NCBI GenBank assembly: GCA_000092065.1
Contig: CP000583.1
Direction: 5' to 3' (one strand)
Length of the DNA stretch: 64,000 bases
From: Ostreococcus lucimarinus
Taxonomy: Eukaryota
The notes under the pieces are model-generated. The model had not been told where the DNA came from. It saw only the letters and a program-made list of their open reading frames with translations, and made no database searches. The position numbers and the translations under genes are program-made. Of the stretch, positions 24,179 to 34,059 are shown one piece after another; the stretch's first letter is position 1, and each line of letters begins with the position of its first letter.

Positions 24179-24614
24179 CGCGCGTCGTCGTCTGTCGCGC
24201 GCGTTTCGCGACGCACTGCGCGACGCGCGTCGGGCATGGAGCCGCGCGCGCGCGGCGCGGCGGCGCGGCGGGGGAAGGCCAAGGTGCGCCGCGACGAGAC
24301 GCGCGACGCGCGACGCGCGACGCGCGCGACGAGGGCGCGCGCGACTGATTTCGATTTGATTCGCGACGCAACAGCTCGACGCATTTCGCGCGCGGGAACG
24401 CGGCGACGCGCGCGCGGACGCGTCGAACGATGGACGACGGACGATTGACTTGGCGCGCGCGACGCGCGACGGCGCGCGCGACGCGCGAAGCTCGAGCGAC
24501 GGCGCGGTGGACGCGACGACGACGGCGACGGCGACGACGGCGGCGGCGGCGGCGCGCGCGACGGACGACGCGAGCGAAGACGCGAGCGAAGACGCGCGGG
24601 ATGAGTTCGAGGAA

Positions 24615-26165
24615 ATGCGAGGGGTGCTCGAGCGCGCGCGAGCGGAGGCGCGTCGGGCGCGAGAGGAGACGGCGATGGTGAAGGCGGAGCTCGCGGTGCT
24701 GAGGCGGAGCGCGAAGGAGGCGAAAATGTCGGCGGACGCGGCGAAGGGCGCGGCGGACGAAGCGAGCGGGAGTCGAGCGGTGTTGGAGGCGCGCGCGGTG
24801 GAGGCGGAAGAGGCGCGAGAGAGAGCGGAGAAGGCGCTCGATGCGGCGGAGACGGAGGCGAGGGAGGCGCGACTCGCGCTGGACGCGGCGCTCGCCGAGT
24901 CGGAGGAAGCGAGAGCGGCGCGGGCGGACGTAGAACGACGATTAGAGGTCGCCACCGCGCGAGCGACGGACGAGGAGCGAGAAAAGTCACGTTTCGATGA
25001 AATTATTCGCGAACGCGACGCGGCGCTGCGCGCGAGCGAGACCGCGAACGCGAGATCGCGAAGTTTAGAATCCGCGTTGGCGGAGTCGCGCGAGGAGCAG
25101 CTTCGCGCCGAGGAGGAAGCTATGCAGCTTCGGCGAGATTTAGACGAGAGCCGCGAGGAGCGACGACGCGCTCGCAGTGACGGCGCAATTTCGGCCGTGA
25201 ACGACGACGGGACGAGCGCGGGCGACGTGGACCGGCGAAGGGGGCAATTTGTCGCCGACGAGGACATCGCGGCGCAGCAGGAGGAAAAGTACGCCTTGCT
25301 CGCCGAGTTACAAACGGAACGTCGCCGTCGCATCGAAGTCGAGGCCGAGCTCGAGGACGTGATTAACACGCAAAATGATATGAATGCGCGCGCGGAAACC
25401 GCATCGCGCATCGCCGCGGTGGCGGAAGGCGAGGCGGACGATTACCGCGCGCGCGTATCGGAGACGGAAAAGGCGACGAGGGCGGCGAAACGTTCGGCGA
25501 CGGCGTTCGAGAGCCGCGCGGTGAAGGCGGAGAGCGCCATCGCTGCCGTCAAGCTCGTTATCGGCGAATCCGAAGACGCGAAGCACAGCGACGACGAGCT
25601 GCACCTCCGCGTCCGAGCGTACGTCGATCGCAAGACGCGGCGGGCGGACGCCGCGCTCGCCGACGCCCTGGAAGAGGCCCAACTTTTGCGCTCAAAGGCG
25701 AAACAGATGGGTGAATCCCGCGTCACCGACGCCGCGAGCGTCGACGACCGCGTGCTCAAACTCGCGGAAGTTCGCGACAAGCTCGTGGAAGAGATGAACG
25801 CCCAATCCGCCGAACTCGAACGCGCCGACGCCGAGATCGAGACCCGCGCCGACGCCGTCGCCGCCGCGCGCGACGAAATCACCGACCTCGAGCTCAAGCT
25901 CGCCTCTTCCAACGCTCAAAACGCGCGTCTGATCGAAATCATCGAGGAACAGGGCCGATGGTCCGCCGCCGAGCCGTCCTCGAGCGTCTCCGCGTCCTCC
26001 GCGGCGCGCGCCGCCGTCTCCGCCCCCGTCACCCCCGTCAAATTCGCGCCTCGTCGCGCCGACGTTCGCCGTCGAGACCTCGCCGCCGACGTCCTCGGCG
26101 ATCGCAAGGCGCTTCTCGCTCGCATCGAGGCGCGCTTGCTCGAGATTCACGCGCTCCAACGTTAA
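24615..26165 (+). CDS. Long coiled-coil protein (Ala/Glu/Arg-rich heptad-like)
   Basis: Track ORF 24450..26165 begins on TTG; first ATG is 24615. There is a continuous heptad-like sequence (EARRAREETAMVKAELAVLRRSAKEAKMSADAAKG... LRAEEEAMQLRRDLDESREERRRA ... ELERADAEIETRADAVAAARDEITDLELKLASSNAQNARLIEIIEEQ). The composition-driven ORF risk is real. However, the K/E/L/I/M/Q content and the AT-rich end argue for a real gene. Confidence 0.55.
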   Translation: MRGVLERARAEARRAREETAMVKAELAVLRRSAKEAKMSADAAKGAADEASGSRAVLEARAVEAEEARERAEKALDAAETEAREARLALDAALAESEEARAARADVERRLEVATARATDEEREKSRFDEIIRERDAALRASETANARSRSLESALAESREEQLRAEEEAMQLRRDLDESREERRRARSDGAISAVNDDGTSAGDVDRRRGQFVADEDIAAQQEEKYALLAELQTERRRRIEVEAELEDVINTQNDMNARAETASRIAAVAEGEADDYRARVSETEKATRAAKRSATAFESRAVKAESAIAAVKLVIGESEDAKHSDDELHLRVRAYVDRKTRRADAALADALEEAQLLRSKAKQMGESRVTDAASVDDRVLKLAEVRDKLVEEMNAQSAELERADAEIETRADAVAAARDEITDLELKLASSNAQNARLIEIIEEQGRWSAAEPSSSVSASSAARAAVSAPVTPVKFAPRRADVRRRDLAADVLGDRKALLARIEARLLEIHALQR

Positions 26166-26511: not shown

Positions 26512-27022
26512 GGCGACGACGACGAGTGCGGGGGCGAGGGACGCGGTTCGAGGACGCGTCGTCTCGGCGACGCGAGGCGCGGGAGACGGGCGGCGACGCG
26601 CGGCGACGCGCGCGGGACGGCCGGGACGGATGCACGTGCCGAGCGACGCGTTTCAGGGACGGTCGCCGGAGATCGCGGCGAGGGACGCGCTCGGGAGGCT
26701 GTTCACGGCGGTGGCGGCGCGCGCGACGCTGGCGGAGACGCTCGAGCGCGAGGGCGCGGAGAGCGAGACGTATCTGGCGTTGAAAGCGTACGTGGACGCG
26801 CATCCGATCGGGAGGGACGGGAACGATTGGTTGCGGGGACTGATGGCGCGCGACGACGCGGGGAGTCGCGCGGCGGGGTTGCGCGTGTTGGAGGCGCGAG
26901 AGACGTACGCGAACGAGGTGTTTTCGTTCGAGGAGGTGCGGGAGATGGTGGAGAAGGCGGTGACGGAGGAAAACGATAAGTTGATGGCGGATTACGTGAA
27001 GAGAATGCTGCCGAAAATGTAA
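26510..27022 (+). CDS. RBCX: RbcX-like Rubisco assembly chaperone with transit-like leader
   Basis: In-frame ATG 26510 lies inside track ORF 25958..27022. ARDALGRLFTAVAARATLAETLERE...YLALKAYVDAHPIGRDGNDWLRGLMARD...GLRVLEARETYANEVFSFEEV...EENDKLMADYVKR parallels the RbcX helices as I remember them (QSYxTYQAVR..L.E.NP, HPI..xD.YL..LM.EN, LRI..VRE..AE, N..L...L). An alternative start is the downstream MHVPSD (ATG near 26630). Confidence 0.62.
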   Translation: MATTTSAGARDAVRGRVVSATRGAGDGRRRAATRAGRPGRMHVPSDAFQGRSPEIAARDALGRLFTAVAARATLAETLEREGAESETYLALKAYVDAHPIGRDGNDWLRGLMARDDAGSRAAGLRVLEARETYANEVFSFEEVREMVEKAVTEENDKLMADYVKRMLPKM

Positions 27023-27074: not shown

Positions 27075-30000
27075 TCAGCACAAGTAACCGCGACAGTTGT
27101 CGGCGCCGCAATAGCACGGCACTTTGCCGTCTTCGCTTTCGAATCTGTAGTTGTACGTCAGCTCTTCCCCGGGCCGAACGTCGGTTCGAGCGAAAAAGAT
27201 GATGTGATTCGCGTCGTCTACTTTGACGATTTTTGAGTACATGTTCGGGTTGCAGCTGTGATTGGTGAATCGCGCAAAGTTTCCTTGAAACGTGCAATCG
27301 ACGACGGTGTCGTCGTCTTGTTTTAAGAGGTAGCAATCCACTCCGTTATCTTCGTAAAAGGTTTCGCGAAGATCCGCGACGGTGCTTCGACACGTCTCGC
27401 CTTTGAACTGCGTGACGATGGAACCCGCCTTGTGGAAAACCTTGGCCACCAGTCCCCATCCGTGTATGTTGGATTTGGCGAACGTGAGTCTATCGGAGTA
27501 CGACGCCGTCATTTGTTCGAGCTTCTCTCGCATCGTGAGCCCATGCTGTTCGACGACTTTATCATCCGAAGCGCCGTTCACGCCCCTAGCCTTGCGCTCC
27601 GCTTGTACCGCCGCAAACTCTTCGGGCGTGTACTTTTTTGAAGCAATCAACTCGCGCTTGAAGGCGCCTCGCGACCCGCGCACGATGTACGGCGTAAGTC
27701 CGACGTACAGACGTTTTCCTGTCTTCGGCGGTGGTCCCGTAACCTTGGCGTTTTTGTCGTTTTTATTCAATCCAAGACGCTTGTACACGTTGGCTTGAAT
27801 TTCTTCGAGCTGCTTGCGGCTGAGATTTCTCTGGTGTCCGAGCGATTTGGCGGACAGGTCAACGGTTTTTTCGCGCCGGATTTCGCATCCCCACACCTCG
27901 AGCCATTTTCCAAGCGACATTACCGTTCGGTTATTGAGGACGACTCTGATGTGATGGCTCCACTTCTTCGGTCCTTTCACTCCAATGTGGGCTTCAAACC
28001 GCGACCTCTCGTGGTACACCGGCCCTTGGTCGCTATCGACGCACGCTCGACACAGACATTCGATTCGTCGCGTTTGTACGTGATATGTCCCAGATACACC
28101 TTTGCATACGACGCTCACCATCGCTGGCAAGTCATCGGGAACGTGCGTACGAACGGCGTCTTCGTCTTCCGATTCTTCGTCGTCTGAACCCTCCATGTAC
28201 GGAGCGTTATCACCAAGCGCGATGCGTCGATCGATCTCGTCGTCCTCAAACTCTTGAGGCACTGAACACACCGAAAATGCGGCTTCAGGATTTTTCTGAC
28301 ACGTCCACATGTCGGCATCATCGGCAGATAACTTCTCCGCAAAACTTTGAGGGACGCGCCGCCACTTCCCGCACGACGGGTTCTCGCACTGCACCCAAGC
28401 CTCTTTCTCACGAGGCTTTTTCGGCCGCCCGAGTTCCGCGATCTTGGCGCGGTCTGCGGGATTAGACGGTCGTTTTGCTGATGTAAATTGTGCGTTGGCG
28501 ATCGCCAGTTGCGTCTCAAGTTGTGTGTTTTTGCCAGAGCTTAATTTTGCGGCTTCAGGCAAAAACGACAAATCCGGTGCCTCGCCATCGACGAATTTCA
28601 AATTTTGCGCATCACGCGTAAACGATATCATCAAGTCTGTCCCATCGTCGAAAATGACTTTATACCGAATGCCAGTGCGCGTTATCGTGACGTCAATCAT
28701 CGTTCCGTCTTTCCAGTCCGGTGCGAGAATGGTACCGGTGTCGATTTGCACGCGGCGTCCAACGAGAGCTCTTGCTCGAGTCTCTTCGCCGCTCTTATCT
28801 TCCAACTTGTCGTCTTCAAATGTTCCCAGACCGAGACCGAGGAGTGCGTGCGTACGCGAAGCTTTGGGCCGTTGGGCTTTTGGTTTTGCCGACATCGACG
28901 CAACCTTGGCCGTTTTTCCAGTATTCGCGAGCACGACGATATTGTGATCGGTAAGCCAATCACCGAAAGCTTGCTCGCCACCGTTATCGTCGACGACGAC
29001 TCTGATTGACGTTTTCCATTTCTTGGTGTGCTTCATACCCGCGTGCTGCTCCCATCTGTTCGCTTCCCACAGAGTCGTCGCGTCAGAGTTCGTGGCTTCG
29101 GCCTCACGTCTGCACCGTCCGCAGAGACATTTGATCAACGTATCTGCTGGTCTAAATATTCCTCTAAACGTCTTGCAGTAAATGTTTACTTCGGGAATAT
29201 CCGGACGCGGAACGTTTCCTTCAGGTACGGGTAAGCCGCCGGGAAGTGCCGGGTACTTTGCTTCCGGCAACTTTGCTTGCAGCGCCAACGTCGCACTCTG
29301 AGGTGAGCTCTCGGAACGCTCTGATACGGTTTTACGTCTCTTTGATTCCGGAAACGTCGTTGAGGGATCTAATTTGGCATCGGCATCCTCCACGGCATCC
29401 TCGGCGTCTGTTTTACCGCCTTCGGCATTGTCGTCGTCGTCGTCGTCTGTTGGATCGGCGTCGTACTCAACGTCGAGATCTGTCGAGAGTTCTGCGTCGT
29501 CGTCGTCGTCGTCATCCTGCAATAAGTCTTCAGTAGTTTCCATGGTATCGACGCGTTGATGCGCGATGACGTCGTCTTTTGTATGCACCATGTCTGTATC
29601 AGCACGTTCCGTCATGTCGTCGTCGTCGTCGTCATCCTCGTCGTCGTCGTCGTCGTCGTTCTCGTCCTCGTCGTCCGCGTGCAAGACCCGTTTACGAACT
29701 CGATACTTCTTCGTTCCTGACCCGGGAGCGTCGGGATTTTCTTCGTTTTCGTCCTTGATGTCCGCCTCCGTCCTCGGATGACCAAGTTGCTCGTAACGAC
29801 GGAACTTTGCGCAGTTCATGAAGTCTGTCTCAGAGTCTGAGCTCAACTCTGGCTCATCAGCGAGCGTCGCGGATGCTTCTCGTCTCTCGCGCTCTTCTGT
29901 TTCCGCGCGCATCTCCGCCTTGGTACGTTTTCGTTCCTTATTGGCACCACACTCCAACAGCCGTCCCTCCTGGCCGATCTTCAAGCCCTCTGTGCCGGCG

Positions 30001-32540
30001 TAAATTTGTGCGCGCTCGACGTCGACACGACAGTGTCTATGACAGTACGACAGTAACTGTAATGGCGATTCATCATCGTCGCCATCGTCGTTGGCATCCA
30101 TGTACAAACCAGTCGCGCGCGCGCACAACGGATGATACGCGATGTAGCAACCCGGATGACAGCATTGGATTTTCGCGCCCATGCGTTGCTTACAGACCGT
30201 GCACAAGAGCGACCAGCGTTCTTTTTGAATGTTTGCGATGTTATCGATGGGCTCCATGCGCTCGATATCAAGCACGGTGGTCTCGGGTATCCATTGGCAG
30301 CACGCGCTGTGCGCCCAGAGCGAAGGAATCGTCGTCGGTTTGAGCGCACCGCCGGCGACGGGACACAAACAACACAAGGGTGTTTCGCTCACTGCACCAC
30401 CGGTGTGCTCGCACGAACGACACAGCCAACCGACGGTGTCGTCTGGTATGTCTGGAACACCGTAGCAAGACTGATGCACCGTCACCGCGCACGCCTCGCA
30501 CGTGATGAGCTGGTCAAAGTCGAAGTCGCGCTCATCGTCGCACACCGCACACCGATCGACGCTCCAACTCACTTGCACGATTTCGTAATCCAGCGAAGCA
30601 TTTTCATCGTCCTCGGTATGTTGATCCCTACGAGCGTTGAAATCATTGCCGTCCAAGAAACGTCCTATGGGCATCTTTGCCGGCTCAATCATTCTCAAAG
30701 ACGCCTTCCACTTTTTCGCTTGCCCCATGCCAGCGTGCTTTTCGAACTCAGTCGGCGTCATGTACTTGTTCGTTCCTGCGCAATCCGAGCATTGACACAT
30801 CACTTGATTCAAGCGCGTGTAATAGTCTGCGGCCACGCCGTTACAAATCACCGCAAGTGTCTCTGGCAACTCGTTCCCGTCGCGAAGCTTGGAAATATCA
30901 CCCGCCTTGGAGCGACGCGACGCCTTGCTCGCATCGGGGTTTCGTTCCGTCTTCACCCTCGCTGCGTGCGCGTCTGGGTTCAAGATTTTATCGTAACGCT
31001 TTCGCTGCTGGTCGTCGAGCTCGCCGCTCTCAAACATCTCCGTGATCATCTCTCTAAATCGCTCCGCCTCATCTCTGGCGAGCTCCTCGTATCTCTCGCG
31101 CTCTGACGCGTCAATCTCGCGCCACGCCGCACCCTGCTCGCGATAGACCGCGGCGAAATCTATGTTATCTTCGCCGTTTTCGTCTTTGTACTGTTGGAAG
31201 AAATCCGCGGCGAAGAGCTGCCACGAACTCTTCGGTCGTTTGGGCACGGTGTTTTGCTTCTTCGACACTGCGTGCGGCGATTTCATCGTCCCCGCTCGCA
31301 CCGAGGCTGAGGAAGAACCCTTTAGGAGTTTATCCAGCGTTGGCATGCGCCTCAGCAGCATTTTAGCCTCTTTCATCTCCTTTGAAGGTCGACCGACTCG
31401 AGGTTTGCTGAGAAGTTTTTCCAAGCGCTTGCGCTCTCGAATCTGCGCCTTGCGTTCAGCCTCGACGCGCGCTTGCTCCGCGAGTCTCGCCTCCGCGGCG
31501 ATCTGCTCGGGAGTTTTACTTCTACACACCGGACACGCGTACGGAATATCCTCATCCTCACCGTTTTGTTCTCTATCCAACACCTCCGCCGCCACGGCGT
31601 CGCATTCGCGATGAATCCACATCTCGCATCGATCGCACCCCACCATGGCGTCGCCCGCGCTCCAGTGCCACACTCGATCGCACACCGGACAGAACTGACC
31701 CTCTTTGTGCAACTTTCTGCACAGCGCGCAGAGCCCATTCGAGTTTTTCGATCGCAACGACTCGTCATCCGTCACGCCGCACGACGCGCACCGACGCGTC
31801 GCCAGCCGCTCCGCCGGCGCGCTGCACGGCAACCCGAACGAGTCCTGTAATCCCAGCACCCCCACCTCGTCTTCGCGCTCGCCCTCGCGCGAGCCATCGT
31901 CGCCGTCGAGCCCCTTCCCGTCCCCCCCCCGATCGTCGGCTCTCCCTTCGCTCTCCGTCGCCCCGACGTCGTCCTCGTCCGCCGCCGCCGCCTCGCGCGC
32001 CTCCTCGCACGCCTCCTCGAACGCCCTCGGTCGCATTCGCTTCGCCACGCGCTGCGCGTCCAACCCTCGTCGCACCCCTCGCGCCCACGCCATCAACCCC
32101 TCCGCGGGCGCCCAGCAATAATCCCTCTCCCGCCCCCGCGTCCCGCTCGGCCCGTAAAACATCACGCAGCAGCACGCCGCCGCGAAATCCCTCCGCACCG
32201 CCTCCGGCGCTCGCCCCACGTCCACGATCACGCCCGGCCACATCGGTTCCCGTCCTCGCGCGCCGACGCCTCGCGCGAACACGACGTCTCCCGCGACGTA
32301 CGACGCGAGCGGCGCCGGCGAATCGTCCGCGTCGTCCGTCGCCCCCCTCGTCGGTCGCGCGCGCGTCGCGCGTCCATCGTCGCCGTCGTCGCCGTCCGTC
32401 CGCGCCGTCGACGTCGACGGCATCGCGACGCGCGCGCCGCCCGCGACGGGCGCGCCCGGGAGCATCGCGCGACGCGACGCGTCGCGAACGCGCGCGCGGC
32501 GCGGCGCGGCCGCGCAATGCGCCGACGTATGAAAACCCAT
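27075..32540 (-). CDS. Trithorax-type SET-domain histone-lysine methyltransferase with PWWP, PHD/ePHD, HMG-box, CW zinc finger and three SAND-like modules
   Basis: Single 5.6-kb ORF; the track start 32672 is TTG and the first ATG is 32540. Domains from the N-terminus:
- PWWP-like: DVVFARG...EPMWPGVIVD
- PHD: CALCRKLHKEGQFCPVCDRVWHW...VGCDRCEMWIHRECD
- HMG box: PKRPKSSWQLFAADFFQQYK...AWREIDASERERYEELARDEAERFRE
- ePHD: CAVCDDERDFDFDQLITCEACAVTVHQSCYG...WLCRSC...CCLCP..GGALKPT
- CW finger: WVQCENPSCGKWRRVP
- SET/post-SET: FARFTNHSCNPNMYSKIV...GEELTYNY.F....KVPCYCGADNCRGYL
Three KKWK-containing SAND-like units are described under findings. Confidence 0.92.
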   Translation of the reverse strand: MGFHTSAHCAAAPRRARVRDASRRAMLPGAPVAGGARVAMPSTSTARTDGDDGDDGRATRARPTRGATDDADDSPAPLASYVAGDVVFARGVGARGREPMWPGVIVDVGRAPEAVRRDFAAACCCVMFYGPSGTRGRERDYCWAPAEGLMAWARGVRRGLDAQRVAKRMRPRAFEEACEEAREAAAADEDDVGATESEGRADDRGGDGKGLDGDDGSREGEREDEVGVLGLQDSFGLPCSAPAERLATRRCASCGVTDDESLRSKNSNGLCALCRKLHKEGQFCPVCDRVWHWSAGDAMVGCDRCEMWIHRECDAVAAEVLDREQNGEDEDIPYACPVCRSKTPEQIAAEARLAEQARVEAERKAQIRERKRLEKLLSKPRVGRPSKEMKEAKMLLRRMPTLDKLLKGSSSASVRAGTMKSPHAVSKKQNTVPKRPKSSWQLFAADFFQQYKDENGEDNIDFAAVYREQGAAWREIDASERERYEELARDEAERFREMITEMFESGELDDQQRKRYDKILNPDAHAARVKTERNPDASKASRRSKAGDISKLRDGNELPETLAVICNGVAADYYTRLNQVMCQCSDCAGTNKYMTPTEFEKHAGMGQAKKWKASLRMIEPAKMPIGRFLDGNDFNARRDQHTEDDENASLDYEIVQVSWSVDRCAVCDDERDFDFDQLITCEACAVTVHQSCYGVPDIPDDTVGWLCRSCEHTGGAVSETPLCCLCPVAGGALKPTTIPSLWAHSACCQWIPETTVLDIERMEPIDNIANIQKERWSLLCTVCKQRMGAKIQCCHPGCYIAYHPLCARATGLYMDANDDGDDDESPLQLLSYCHRHCRVDVERAQIYAGTEGLKIGQEGRLLECGANKERKRTKAEMRAETEERERREASATLADEPELSSDSETDFMNCAKFRRYEQLGHPRTEADIKDENEENPDAPGSGTKKYRVRKRVLHADDEDENDDDDDDEDDDDDDDMTERADTDMVHTKDDVIAHQRVDTMETTEDLLQDDDDDDDAELSTDLDVEYDADPTDDDDDDNAEGGKTDAEDAVEDADAKLDPSTTFPESKRRKTVSERSESSPQSATLALQAKLPEAKYPALPGGLPVPEGNVPRPDIPEVNIYCKTFRGIFRPADTLIKCLCGRCRREAEATNSDATTLWEANRWEQHAGMKHTKKWKTSIRVVVDDNGGEQAFGDWLTDHNIVVLANTGKTAKVASMSAKPKAQRPKASRTHALLGLGLGTFEDDKLEDKSGEETRARALVGRRVQIDTGTILAPDWKDGTMIDVTITRTGIRYKVIFDDGTDLMISFTRDAQNLKFVDGEAPDLSFLPEAAKLSSGKNTQLETQLAIANAQFTSAKRPSNPADRAKIAELGRPKKPREKEAWVQCENPSCGKWRRVPQSFAEKLSADDADMWTCQKNPEAAFSVCSVPQEFEDDEIDRRIALGDNAPYMEGSDDEESEDEDAVRTHVPDDLPAMVSVVCKGVSGTYHVQTRRIECLCRACVDSDQGPVYHERSRFEAHIGVKGPKKWSHHIRVVLNNRTVMSLGKWLEVWGCEIRREKTVDLSAKSLGHQRNLSRKQLEEIQANVYKRLGLNKNDKNAKVTGPPPKTGKRLYVGLTPYIVRGSRGAFKRELIASKKYTPEEFAAVQAERKARGVNGASDDKVVEQHGLTMREKLEQMTASYSDRLTFAKSNIHGWGLVAKVFHKAGSIVTQFKGETCRSTVADLRETFYEDNGVDCYLLKQDDDTVVDCTFQGNFARFTNHSCNPNMYSKIVKVDDANHIIFFARTDVRPGEELTYNYRFESEDGKVPCYCGADNCRGYLC

Positions 32541-33153
32541 CCGAGATCGCGCGCGTGTTTCGGGGCACGAAACACCCGCGCGCGGCGAGAGATTCGATCG
32601 CGCGATCGCCACGTGCCGCGCCGACGGCCGCGCGACGCGCGATCGCGCACACCGCGCTTTTCGAACGCGCAATACGTCGATCTCGGCGAACTTCGCGAAA
32701 TTCGCGCCGCGCGAAAAAAAAAGAAGCGCCGATCCGCAAAGACGGAAAAGATTTTCTCGCGCGCGCGATCGGATCTCGAACGCGGGGGATTCGCGCGATC
32801 GACGACGTGAGGTTCGCGCGCGATCGATGATCGCCGACTCCAGGGTCGCGCGATCGCGCGATCGATCGATCGCGCGCGCGTGCCGCGCGCGGCCGACCGC
32901 GCGCGCGCGGCCTTTCGGAACCCGCGGGCGCGCGCGCGGGAGACGACGACGCGCGAGGCGCGCGGGCGAGCGCGAGCGCGGGCGCGAGCGCGCGCGGGGG
33001 GGTTCGGTGCGAAAAAATTCGCGCGCGGCGACGTCGAGGCGCGGGCGCGGAGACGCGGTCGGCGACGGCGCGAGGGCGGTGGCGATTCATCCATCCATCG
33101 CGCCATCGAGCCATCGAGCCATCCATCGCGGCGCGGCGGGCGAGACGGGGGGC

Positions 33154-34059
33154 ATGGGCGTGGTGTCGCGACATCGATCGACGCGCGCGCAGGCGGTGAA
33201 CGGGATGCGCGATAACGGCCTGCCGCGGAGCGACAGCGCGATGACGCTGCGGAACGCGCAGAAGGGGTCGGAGACGAGCGCGCGCGCGACGCGGGGCAAG
33301 TCGCCATCGCGCGCGGCCGGAGATCGCGGTGATCCGTGTGTGACGGACGCGAACCGGGTCGCGGCGACGGCGGCGACGCGCGGGGACGGGACGGAGACGC
33401 CGCTGGGGGGGGAGGACGAAGACGAGGACATGCTCGGGGAGGAGACGCCGTCCGCGAGGGAGCTGGTGCCGGATCGACGGTGGTACACGCTGGTGAAGAT
33501 TCACGACGACGGGTGCACGGTGGCGGTGTCGGACGCGGAGCTGGCGATGCTGGAGGCGAGCATTTTGAAGGAAAACGTGGGGGGAGGGGCGAACGCGTGG
33601 ACGCGACCGTCGTCGATGCGACCGTGCTCGAGCGAGGAAGATGGTTCGGGCGGACGATGGGCGCCGGACGACGCGGAGGAGTACGAGGAGTGCGGGGCGA
33701 GCGGACGCGGCGGGGACTCGATGTCGGCGTGGGAGGACTCGGAAGTCAGCAGACTGCCGAGCGCGGCGCCGGGCGTGGCTGGGCACACCAAACCGGGCGG
33801 TCCGTGTGATCACTGCGGTGCGTTGGACTCGCCGCAGTGGCGCCGAGGACCGGCGAGCAAGCCGATGCTGTGCAACGCGTGCGGCACCCGATACCGCAGA
33901 ACGAACAACCTGGGACCGTCGCCGTCGAGCCGCATGGCGACGCCGGAGAAACGCAAGGCGACTGCGGTACAACAAAACGACACCCCGCGTGGGAAAAAGA
34001 ACGCGCGCTGCGGTGCTATCGGTGAAAAATTTTCCCGAGCAAATGCGATGGTTTACTAA
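33154..34059 (+). CDS. GATA-type zinc-finger transcription factor
   Basis: The C-terminal finger CDHCGALDSPQWRRGPASKPMLCNACGTRYRR is a canonical type IV GATA finger (C-x2-C-x18-C-x2-C). The ORF is open from ATG 32827. The first 109 codons look like Arg-rich promoter junk, so I prefer ATG 33154 (MGVVSRH...). The start is uncertain. Confidence 0.8.
   Translation: MGVVSRHRSTRAQAVNGMRDNGLPRSDSAMTLRNAQKGSETSARATRGKSPSRAAGDRGDPCVTDANRVAATAATRGDGTETPLGGEDEDEDMLGEETPSARELVPDRRWYTLVKIHDDGCTVAVSDAELAMLEASILKENVGGGANAWTRPSSMRPCSSEEDGSGGRWAPDDAEEYEECGASGRGGDSMSAWEDSEVSRLPSAAPGVAGHTKPGGPCDHCGALDSPQWRRGPASKPMLCNACGTRYRRTNNLGPSPSSRMATPEKRKATAVQQNDTPRGKKNARCGAIGEKFSRANAMVY

Follow-up and report, generated by a model that had tools for sequence, protein, structure and literature searches.

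In a 64,000-nucleotide stretch of contig CP000583.1 of Ostreococcus lucimarinus (assembly GCA_000092065.1), referred to here as the window, the gene at 27075..32540 on the minus strand encodes a SET protein of 1,821 amino acids (aa) plus stop, counted from the first ATG of a single uninterrupted open reading frame (ORF). This protein is probably an ATX3/4/5-type enzyme in which an MLL-like SET/post-SET is joined with PWWP, three PHD-type fingers, an HMG box, a CW finger, a Tudor-like region and three zinc-type SAND domains, and which would be tethered multivalently to DNA and chromatin. From the N-terminus, the order of the modules is PWWP, PHD, HMG box, SAND1, PHD-ePHD, acidic tract, SAND2, Tudor-like region, CW, SAND3 and SET/post-SET. 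The overall SAND-SET-HMG-CW architecture is already known. The new details are two cryptic SAND copies, left unannotated in the domain schemes given in PMC3457860 and PMC5725981; the retention of a SAND unit in ATX5-like proteins, together with multi-SAND SET proteins beyond green plants; and a Cys4-His plus KKW signature that unites the SANDs of ATX3/4/5, of ULT and of proteins annotated as 'TDBD'.

The three units, each of about 80 aa, lie on the minus strand at 30639..30875 (unit 1, aa 556-634), 28932..29204 (unit 2, aa 1113-1203, with two insertions relative to unit 1) and 27882..28133 (unit 3, aa 1470-1553, about 140 aa upstream of the SET domain). Units 1 and 2 carry the motif KKWK, and unit 3 reads KKWS in this protein and KKWK or KKWR in other orthologues. 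A hidden Markov model (HMM) built from the unit-1 orthologues alone recognised unit 2 with 25 bits (expectation value, E, 8e-10) and unit 3 with 41.5 bits (6e-15), and matched no other part of the 1,821-aa protein. The same was true in reverse for the HMMs of units 2 and 3, and exactly three unit sites were found in a six-frame scan of the whole window. Profile-profile comparison with hhalign, using 7-sequence alignments of each unit, gave probabilities of 98.5-99.3% and E from 3e-15 to 1.5e-20 (3e-15 for units 1 and 2, 1.5e-20 for units 1 and 3, 7e-19 for units 2 and 3). No variation was seen across 18 unit copies at P4, C11, C27, C29, C32, H47, G49, K54, W56, G71 and L74, and at least 90% of the copies keep K55. 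All three units stand in the same order in all seven orthologues. Conservation of the modules was measured as mean pairwise identity among orthologues, and is 0.58-0.74 for the units as against 0.24-0.52 for the linkers and 0.28 for the acidic tract. As judged by these profiles, the three units are homologous to each other. Three copies of a repeated unit of about 60 aa had been described in an earlier note on this DNA, and the mutual homology and the conservation in seven orthologues bear this out for a somewhat longer unit. Units 2 and 3, with 24-36% identity to unit 1, are diverged paralogous SAND copies that are missed by standard domain searches.

Domain calls were made with Pfam at its curated cut-offs. 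With Pfam SAND (PF01342, aa 559-617; cut-off 22), unit 1 scores 38.4 bits when the full protein is searched and 29.9-32.3 bits when taken by itself; SAND_ULT1 (PF23292; cut-off 25) gives 36 bits over the full protein. Among the 18 unit copies, 14 are matched by SAND_ULT1 and 11 by SAND (E<=0.1). When a joint profile of the units was searched against all PDB sequences, SAND domains only were matched (SP140, 4.6e-4; Sp100b, 0.019; 1ufn, 0.82), and the KKWK of the units aligns to the (S)KNWK/R of Sp100 and SP140. AlphaFold2 models of units 2 and 3 were built from a 21-sequence alignment, with a predicted local distance difference test (pLDDT) of 90.1 and a predicted template-modelling score (pTM) of 0.76 for unit 2, and a pLDDT of 92.0 and a pTM of 0.80 for unit 3. 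The seven top PDB matches of each model in Foldseek were all SAND (GMEB1, SP140, 1ufn, Sp100b), with probabilities of 0.90-1.00 and template-modelling (TM) scores of 0.51-0.60. The model of unit 2 has its KKWK within the helix H60-66. The sequence profiles, the search against the PDB and the predicted folds together support the view that all three units are SAND domains. The earlier note had likened the KKWK units to SAND, proposed a profile search against PF01342, and allowed for a different fold with no SAND similarity. That search placed unit 1 above the cut-off, with units 2 and 3 below it when taken alone, and no different fold emerged among the top structural matches, so that the proposed likeness holds.

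The unit profile gave only 4 fragments in a word-indexed homologue search. Run exhaustively against 1.84 billion representative proteins, it matched 530 with E<=1e-3, of which 152 had E<=1e-10. In 159 family units, C11, C27, C29, C32 and H50 are conserved at 0.92-0.94, G52 and W59 at 0.99, and K57 and K58 at 0.85-0.89; the family consensus is V.CNG..G.F....V.C.C..C.....tPTeFErH.G...AKKWK.SIRV....lG.WL. and its C-terminal half is shared by the ULT SANDs (ISCECTPGC...TPAAFEKHSG..ARKWK). We infer that the units bind zinc via Cys4-His, as putative members of the plant 'zinc' type of SAND. Among 56 long proteins with the unit and without SET, 31 have Pfam SAND, about 20 have ePHD, 12 have SAND_ULT1 and 9 have TDBD.

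The catalytic region consists of the SET domain (27147..27461, minus strand, aa 1694-1798; Pfam PF00856, 77 bits), with the motifs NHSCNPN and ELTYNY, and a post-SET Cys motif at the C-terminus (27078..27128, minus strand, aa 1805-1821; CYCGADNCRGYLC), in which C1809, C1811 and C1816 are invariant. PDB alignments of the SET region reach the C-terminus of the protein. Against solved chains, SET/post-SET matched KMT2A/MLL1 best (E 2e-39), then KMT2B and Set1 (to 1e-33), ahead of NSD, EZH and SETD2. The features of the ATX3/4/5 group are present, namely an MLL/Set1-type SET with post-SET and, upstream of SET, PWWP and PHD ... PHD-ePHD. Because Pfam gave no match in the 1,821-aa protein to FYRN/FYRC, which define ATX1/2, and because the best land-plant match is ATX5-like (E 1e-109), the protein is assigned by its domains to KMT2/trithorax, subgroup ATX3/4/5 (Trx class III-2C), and not to ATX1. 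The classification set out in PMC3457860 and PMC5725981 agrees with this placement. ATX3/4/5 are putative H3K4 methyltransferases according to the title of Chen 2017, as listed in PMC10137558, and the algal protein, from the similarity of its SET domain, would be expected to have the same activity.

Two land-plant ATX5-like proteins, P0009 (Lycium, aa 468-548) and P0008 (aa 1194-1279), carry a SAND-like unit where unit 1 sits in the algal protein, after the first PHD and ahead of the PHD-ePHD pair. The unit of P0009 reads ...ITVVCTGVEGIYYPDIHLVQCKCGSCGTKKQTLSEWEKHTGCRAKKWKCSVKL...LDQWL. Both land-plant units score best with the unit-1 HMM (50-54 bits), and column resampling put them closest to unit 1 in 62-94% of cases; the Pfam SAND cut-off was not reached on either. 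A SAND in ATX3 is reported in passages of PMC7947857 (citing Nedelcu 2019) and PMC13084085 (citing Oya 2022), and a statement in the latter, of 2026, gives ATX3 alone as having SAND. The matches suggest that a diverged SAND copy may persist in the ATX5-like branch and possibly across ATX3/4/5. Since land-plant ATX3/4/5-like proteins keep the unit at the unit-1 position, the linkage of SAND to SET is ancestral to the ATX3/4/5 family and is not a lineage-specific fusion. SAND1 is the ancestral SAND of this family, and land plants still have it.

It is known that the KDWK/RKWK motif of SAND binds DNA and that the SAND of ULT1 bridges a SET-enzyme complex to nucleosomal DNA (bioRxiv 10.64898/2026.06.16.732580). 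By analogy, the SANDs and the HMG box of the algal protein would contact DNA directly, the former through the KKWK helix as in SP140-DNA and ULT1, and the state of histone tails would be read by the CW, PHD and PWWP modules. Held in this way at several points on nucleosomal DNA and chromatin, the enzyme would methylate H3K4 without a separate SAND adaptor. SAND3 might hold the catalytic lobe on nucleosomal DNA in cis, as the SAND of ULT1 does in trans for PRC2. Among the aligned orthologues, each module shows the marks of purifying constraint. Several observations weigh against this picture. Units 2 and 3 alone fall below the Pfam cut-offs (SAND, 10 and 13.5 bits; SAND_ULT1, 16.1 and 19.6 bits), and for this reason standard annotation displays one SAND. 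The support for the fold comes from predicted models built on only 21 sequences, with modest Foldseek E of about 0.02. The MMETSP transcripts contained in the orthologue clusters are partial ones only. Finally, unit 3 reads KKWS or KRWA in some orthologues, and because the motif varies, its predicted contact with DNA may be weakened.

This variability is also relevant to a second explanation, under which SAND2 and SAND3 would serve mainly in protein interaction or regulation, docking intramolecularly on the SET/post-SET lobe or recruiting partners. Precedents exist in the sheet face of the ULT1 SAND, which binds the CXC domain adjoining the SET of SWN in a 2026 cryo-electron microscopy structure (bioRxiv 10.64898/2026.06.16.732580), and in the rice ULT1 SAND, which binds the SET domain of OsTRX1 (PMC7947857). 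Unit 3 is near SET and its KKWK motif varies at the last position, and the strong divergence of units 2 and 3 from unit 1 points in the same direction. However, the K-K-W of the DNA contact is kept in the 18 copies (K54 and W56 throughout, K55 nearly so) and in 85-99% of the 159 family units, and nothing like HRYGD, the PRC2-binding turn of ULT1, is visible in the unit sequences, with the ULT alignment covering only the C-terminal half of the domain. Roles in binding DNA and protein are moreover not mutually exclusive, as ULT1 uses both faces: its helical face (RKWK, K90) contacts nucleosomal DNA, with the lysine reading major-groove purines (bioRxiv 10.64898/2026.06.16.732580). A mainly protein-binding role for SAND2 and SAND3 is thus considered unlikely, and the DNA-tethered enzyme is preferred. 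The link of SAND to SET in such an enzyme bears on how plant and algal H3K4 methyltransferases find their targets. The unusually sequence-predictable localisation of ATX3 may stem from its SAND domain (PMC13084085). An alga with a minimal genome, whose single ATX3/4/5-type enzyme combines three SANDs with an HMG box and a canonical CW, would offer a compact model for direct, DNA-guided trithorax recruitment.

The earlier note had suggested that a single polypeptide with both SAND and trithorax parts would be a Rosetta-stone style fusion in support of an ancient functional link. On this reading, the protein would join ULT1-like and ATX1-like genes and would be independent evidence for an ancient ULT1-ATX1 partnership. 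ULT1 does bind ATX1 (PMC7947857), and its C-terminal domain consists of a CW and a Cys-rich module, so that ULT1 is itself SAND plus CW (bioRxiv 10.64898/2026.06.16.732580); the algal protein has CW between SAND2 and SAND3, in cis with SET. The zinc-type SAND of ULT1/2 (SAND_ULT1 PF23292 plus PF23293) shares CxCx2-3C...FEKH.G..(R/K)KWK with the algal units, and hhalign placed the ULT SAND against unit 1 with 96.5% probability (E 8e-10), against unit 3 with 92% and against unit 2 with 78%. In 85-98% of column resamplings the ULT SANDs fall closest to unit 1, although this nearness may only mirror the slower evolution of unit 1. On the other side, the enzyme is of the ATX3/4/5 type and not of the ATX1/2 type, without FYRN/FYRC, and land-plant ATX3/4/5-like proteins keep the unit. 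SAND is promiscuous in green algae (PMC10137558), and the best-resolved partner of ULT1 is PRC2, bound via ULT-specific loops. The algal CW shows no specific similarity to that of ULT. A fusion of ULT1-like and ATX1-like genes is therefore improbable, and with the architecture already published it was set aside, so that the earlier reading is supported only in part. A looser functional link is favoured by the presence here of both ULT1 domain types, SAND and CW, in cis with SET, and by the nearness of the ULT SAND to unit 1.

A specific kinship of the algal CW with that of ULT1 was also considered and rejected, the alignment being in register yet non-significant (E 0.11, probability <1%); the aromatic cage of the ULT CW is degenerate, as compared with the algal canonical CW in which the Trp residues are kept. 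Neither mark of the ULTRAPETALA family, a full-length SAND_ULT1 or a CW with PF23293, is present. PF23292 is matched only at model positions ~39-85 of 95, and PF23293, the Cys-rich domain that follows the ULT SAND, has no match in the 1,821-aa protein. ULT1 is a protein of 237 aa without SET, unlike the algal protein, and acts with SET-domain enzymes by tethering them to nucleosomal DNA.

In unit 1, the residues aa 576-611 (nt ~30708-30815, minus strand) are also matched by TDBD ('Tify domain binding domain', PF16135), with 29.5 bits against a cut-off of 23.6; the match falls on the central stretch CxCxxC...FEKHAG. Seven of the 18 units and the land-plant units are likewise matched, and animal SANDs do not have the Cys4-His signature. 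It could accordingly be argued that the units are a distinct zinc-finger module unrelated to SAND, with a convergent KKWK. This is very improbable, since SAND and SAND_ULT1 match the same residues, the full-length unit models superpose on solved SANDs with no other fold above a TM of 0.5 among the top matches, Pfam SAND is found in more than half of the non-SET proteins retrieved by the unit profile (31/56), and TDBD spans only ~35-50 residues inside the unit. TDBD is most simply read as a partial model of the zinc-type SAND domain.

An assembly or annotation artefact that joined neighbouring genes into one long ORF is scarcely credible, given a frame that stays free of stop codons for 5.5 kb, the recurrence of the order of all 12 modules in seven independent orthologues (genomes and metagenomes) down to 44% overall identity, a core module order common to land plants and one haptophyte, and the presence of a 99%-identical gene with the same neighbours on an independent contig from a sediment metagenome (L001). 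The locus holds a single nuclear gene of a picoalga of the Ostreococcus type. All seven orthologues are from Mamiellophyceae and are collinear with the 1,821-aa protein; they include O. tauri XP_003078017.2, which is the nearest named orthologue, and identity to the O. tauri cluster representative is 72%. The single protein of about 1800 aa with PWWP, PHD/ePHD and SET/post-SET described earlier is confirmed by the single ORF and its collinear orthologues. On the minus strand, the reading frame is open over 27075..32672, with a TTG at 32672 as its upstream limit and the first ATG at 32540. Alternative ATGs give proteins of 1,782-1,796 aa, and gene calls within the 90% cluster span 1,782-1,846 aa. 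The exact start codon is uncertain because these calls use differing ATGs and the N-terminal ~77 residues are unconserved among orthologues; the finding is unaffected.

The remaining modules, all on the minus strand, are as follows from the N-terminus. PWWP lies at 31986..32291 (aa 84-185; Pfam PF00855, 28.2 bits, cut-off 25.6). The first Cys-rich/PHD finger, one of two PHD stretches, lies at 31515..31790 (aa ~251-342), with invariant Cys/His columns from C251 to C339, and its local HMM also matches the land-plant ATX5-like protein at the same relative position. The HMG box occupies 31044..31244 (aa 433-499; Pfam PF00505, 34.1 bits, cut-off 25.4; also PF09011). Beyond SAND1 come PHD finger 2 at 30411..30551 (aa 664-710; Pfam PF00628 and PF13831) and the ePHD, or zf-HC5HC2H_2, at 30033..30374 (aa 723-836; Pfam PF13832, 96.4 bits), which has 0.90 mean identity among orthologues. 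The translation then runs into an acidic, D/E-rich low-complexity linker at 29241..29753 (aa ~930-1100). This Asp/Glu-rich tract between ePHD and SAND2 is found in all orthologues, though poorly conserved in sequence, and may be a histone-binding or chaperone-like region. The Tudor-like region between SAND2 and CW (28551..28778, aa 1255-1330; 0.58 mean identity) is tentative. For this block only a SETDB1 Tudor match was obtained, which is non-significant (E 0.23), and its HMM found nothing convincing outside Mamiellophyceae. Pfam Tudor does match the corresponding part of the distant multi-SAND SET proteins P0188 and P0242, in the latter between the second and third units. The CW-type zinc finger is at 28251..28400 (aa 1381-1430; Pfam PF07496, 46.4 bits, cut-off 27.5), with W1382, W1393 and W1412 invariant among orthologues.

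In the neighbourhood, a GATA zinc-finger gene (32827-34056, plus strand; Pfam GATA, 48.6 bits) lies upstream of the SET gene and divergent from it, an adjacency that is kept on L001. Downstream and convergent with the SET gene is a homologue of RbcX, the RuBisCO chaperone (26594-27019, plus strand; Pfam, 41.4 bits). The stop of its ORF at 27022 is about 50 bp from the SET gene stop at 27075, which illustrates the compactness of the genome. Further on, the plus-strand ORF at 24450-26165 encodes 571 aa that are rich in Ala, Glu and Arg and have a coiled-coil look. Pfam matched nothing in it, and at the syntenic position on L001 a gene of equal length is called. The many overlapping long ORFs in other frames near it are GC-rich artefacts. 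Neither a mobile element nor an operon-like link is suggested by the immediate gene context.

Local HMM mapping was carried out on the 150 best representatives of the exhaustive search, and several SET proteins with more than one SAND were found. The Micromonas-like P0115 has HMG, SAND, ePHD, SAND, CW, SAND and SET, and the similarity of its units to those at matching positions is clear. In P0188, which is metagenomic, the order is PWWP, PHD, SAND, ePHD, SAND, SAND and SET, and in P0250 the cluster includes Chromochloris zofingiensis Cz02g12250; SAND was confirmed by Pfam in all of these. P0242 is EukProt EP00963_Diacronema_lutheri_P000900, a predicted protein of the haptophyte Diacronema (Pavlova) lutheri, and has three SAND units (aa ~779-854, 1293-1372 and 1758-1839; 47.3 bits with Pfam SAND) together with ePHD, Tudor and SET. 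Resampling placed its first unit closest to unit 1 in 95% of cases and its last closest to unit 3 in 73%, with the caveat that the nearness of unit 1 to many sequences may reflect its slower evolution. These values are suggestive of positional orthology for the first and last units, while assignments of the middle unit in distant proteins appear ambiguous. SAND has been said to be restricted to Viridiplantae and Metazoa (PMC10137558). P0242 could be a true haptophyte gene, the result of endosymbiotic or lateral transfer, or contamination. P0188, P0242 and P0250 share the layout SAND, ePHD, SAND, (Tudor), SAND, SET, with two or three units, and differ from the algal protein in that neither HMG nor CW was detected by Pfam.

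A much older origin of this layout can be envisaged. The three-SAND order (SAND, PHD-ePHD, SAND, Tudor-like, SAND, SET) would be ancestral to ATX3/4/5 (KMT2 class III-2) and predate the chlorophyte-streptophyte split, and haptophytes would either share it or have received it by transfer. Of the three SANDs, only SAND1 would survive in land plants, and the small plant regulator ULT1 would be a free-standing descendant of the SAND/CW part of such an enzyme. This scenario is speculative and, on present evidence, doubtful. If true, descent from such an enzyme would explain the docking of ULT1 on SET complexes and its tethering to nucleosomal DNA.

Comparison with known systems places the algal protein at differing distances from other SAND and SET families. 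Animal SANDs (SP140 8j70/8j71, Sp100b 1h5p, GMEB1 1oqj and 1ufn) have a KDWK-type motif at the aligned position; their identity to the algal units is 12-20%, they lack the Cys4-His signature, and they occur with other partner domains and have no architecture in common with the algal protein (PMC10137558). The volvocine VARL/RegA family comprises stand-alone SAND proteins with a VARL domain and its N-terminal extension. The sole volvocine match here is a non-SET protein of Gonium pectorale (P0116, KXZ52247.1), a 'hypothetical protein' of 444 aa with three SAND units and little else. The SET-enzyme architecture and the Mamiellophyceae lineage argue against membership of the algal protein in VARL/RegA. 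The SET of human KMT2A/MLL1 (5f5e, 2w5y) is the closest solved catalytic domain over SET and post-SET, but MLL, unlike the algal protein, has FYRN/FYRC, CXXC and bromo domains and is without SAND.

The land-plant proteins ATX3, ATX4 and ATX5 have the same order of PWWP, PHD, SAND-like unit, PHD, ePHD, SET and post-SET, and unlike the algal protein are without the HMG box, SAND2, Tudor-like region, CW and SAND3. The earlier note had regarded the combination of HMG and CW as atypical for ATX/MLL proteins. It is indeed absent from the land-plant relatives, but it has already been published for algae: the HMG, SAND, CW and SET architecture is described in the legend of Fig. 2e of Alvarez-Venegas and Avramova, 2012 (PMC3457860), and the same architecture is given in a table of a 2017 survey (PMC5725981), by its column order for Micromonas RCC299, O. 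tauri and O. lucimarinus. These Mamiellophyceae proteins of Trx class III-2C (O. tauri XP_003078017.2 / A0A096P7N1, O. lucimarinus, Micromonas RCC299) are orthologous to the protein described here and have the identical order of PWWP, PHD, HMG, SAND, PHD-ePHD, CW and SET/post-SET. To the single SAND of the published annotation, two diverged SANDs and a Tudor-like block are added here, and these are found in all orthologues.

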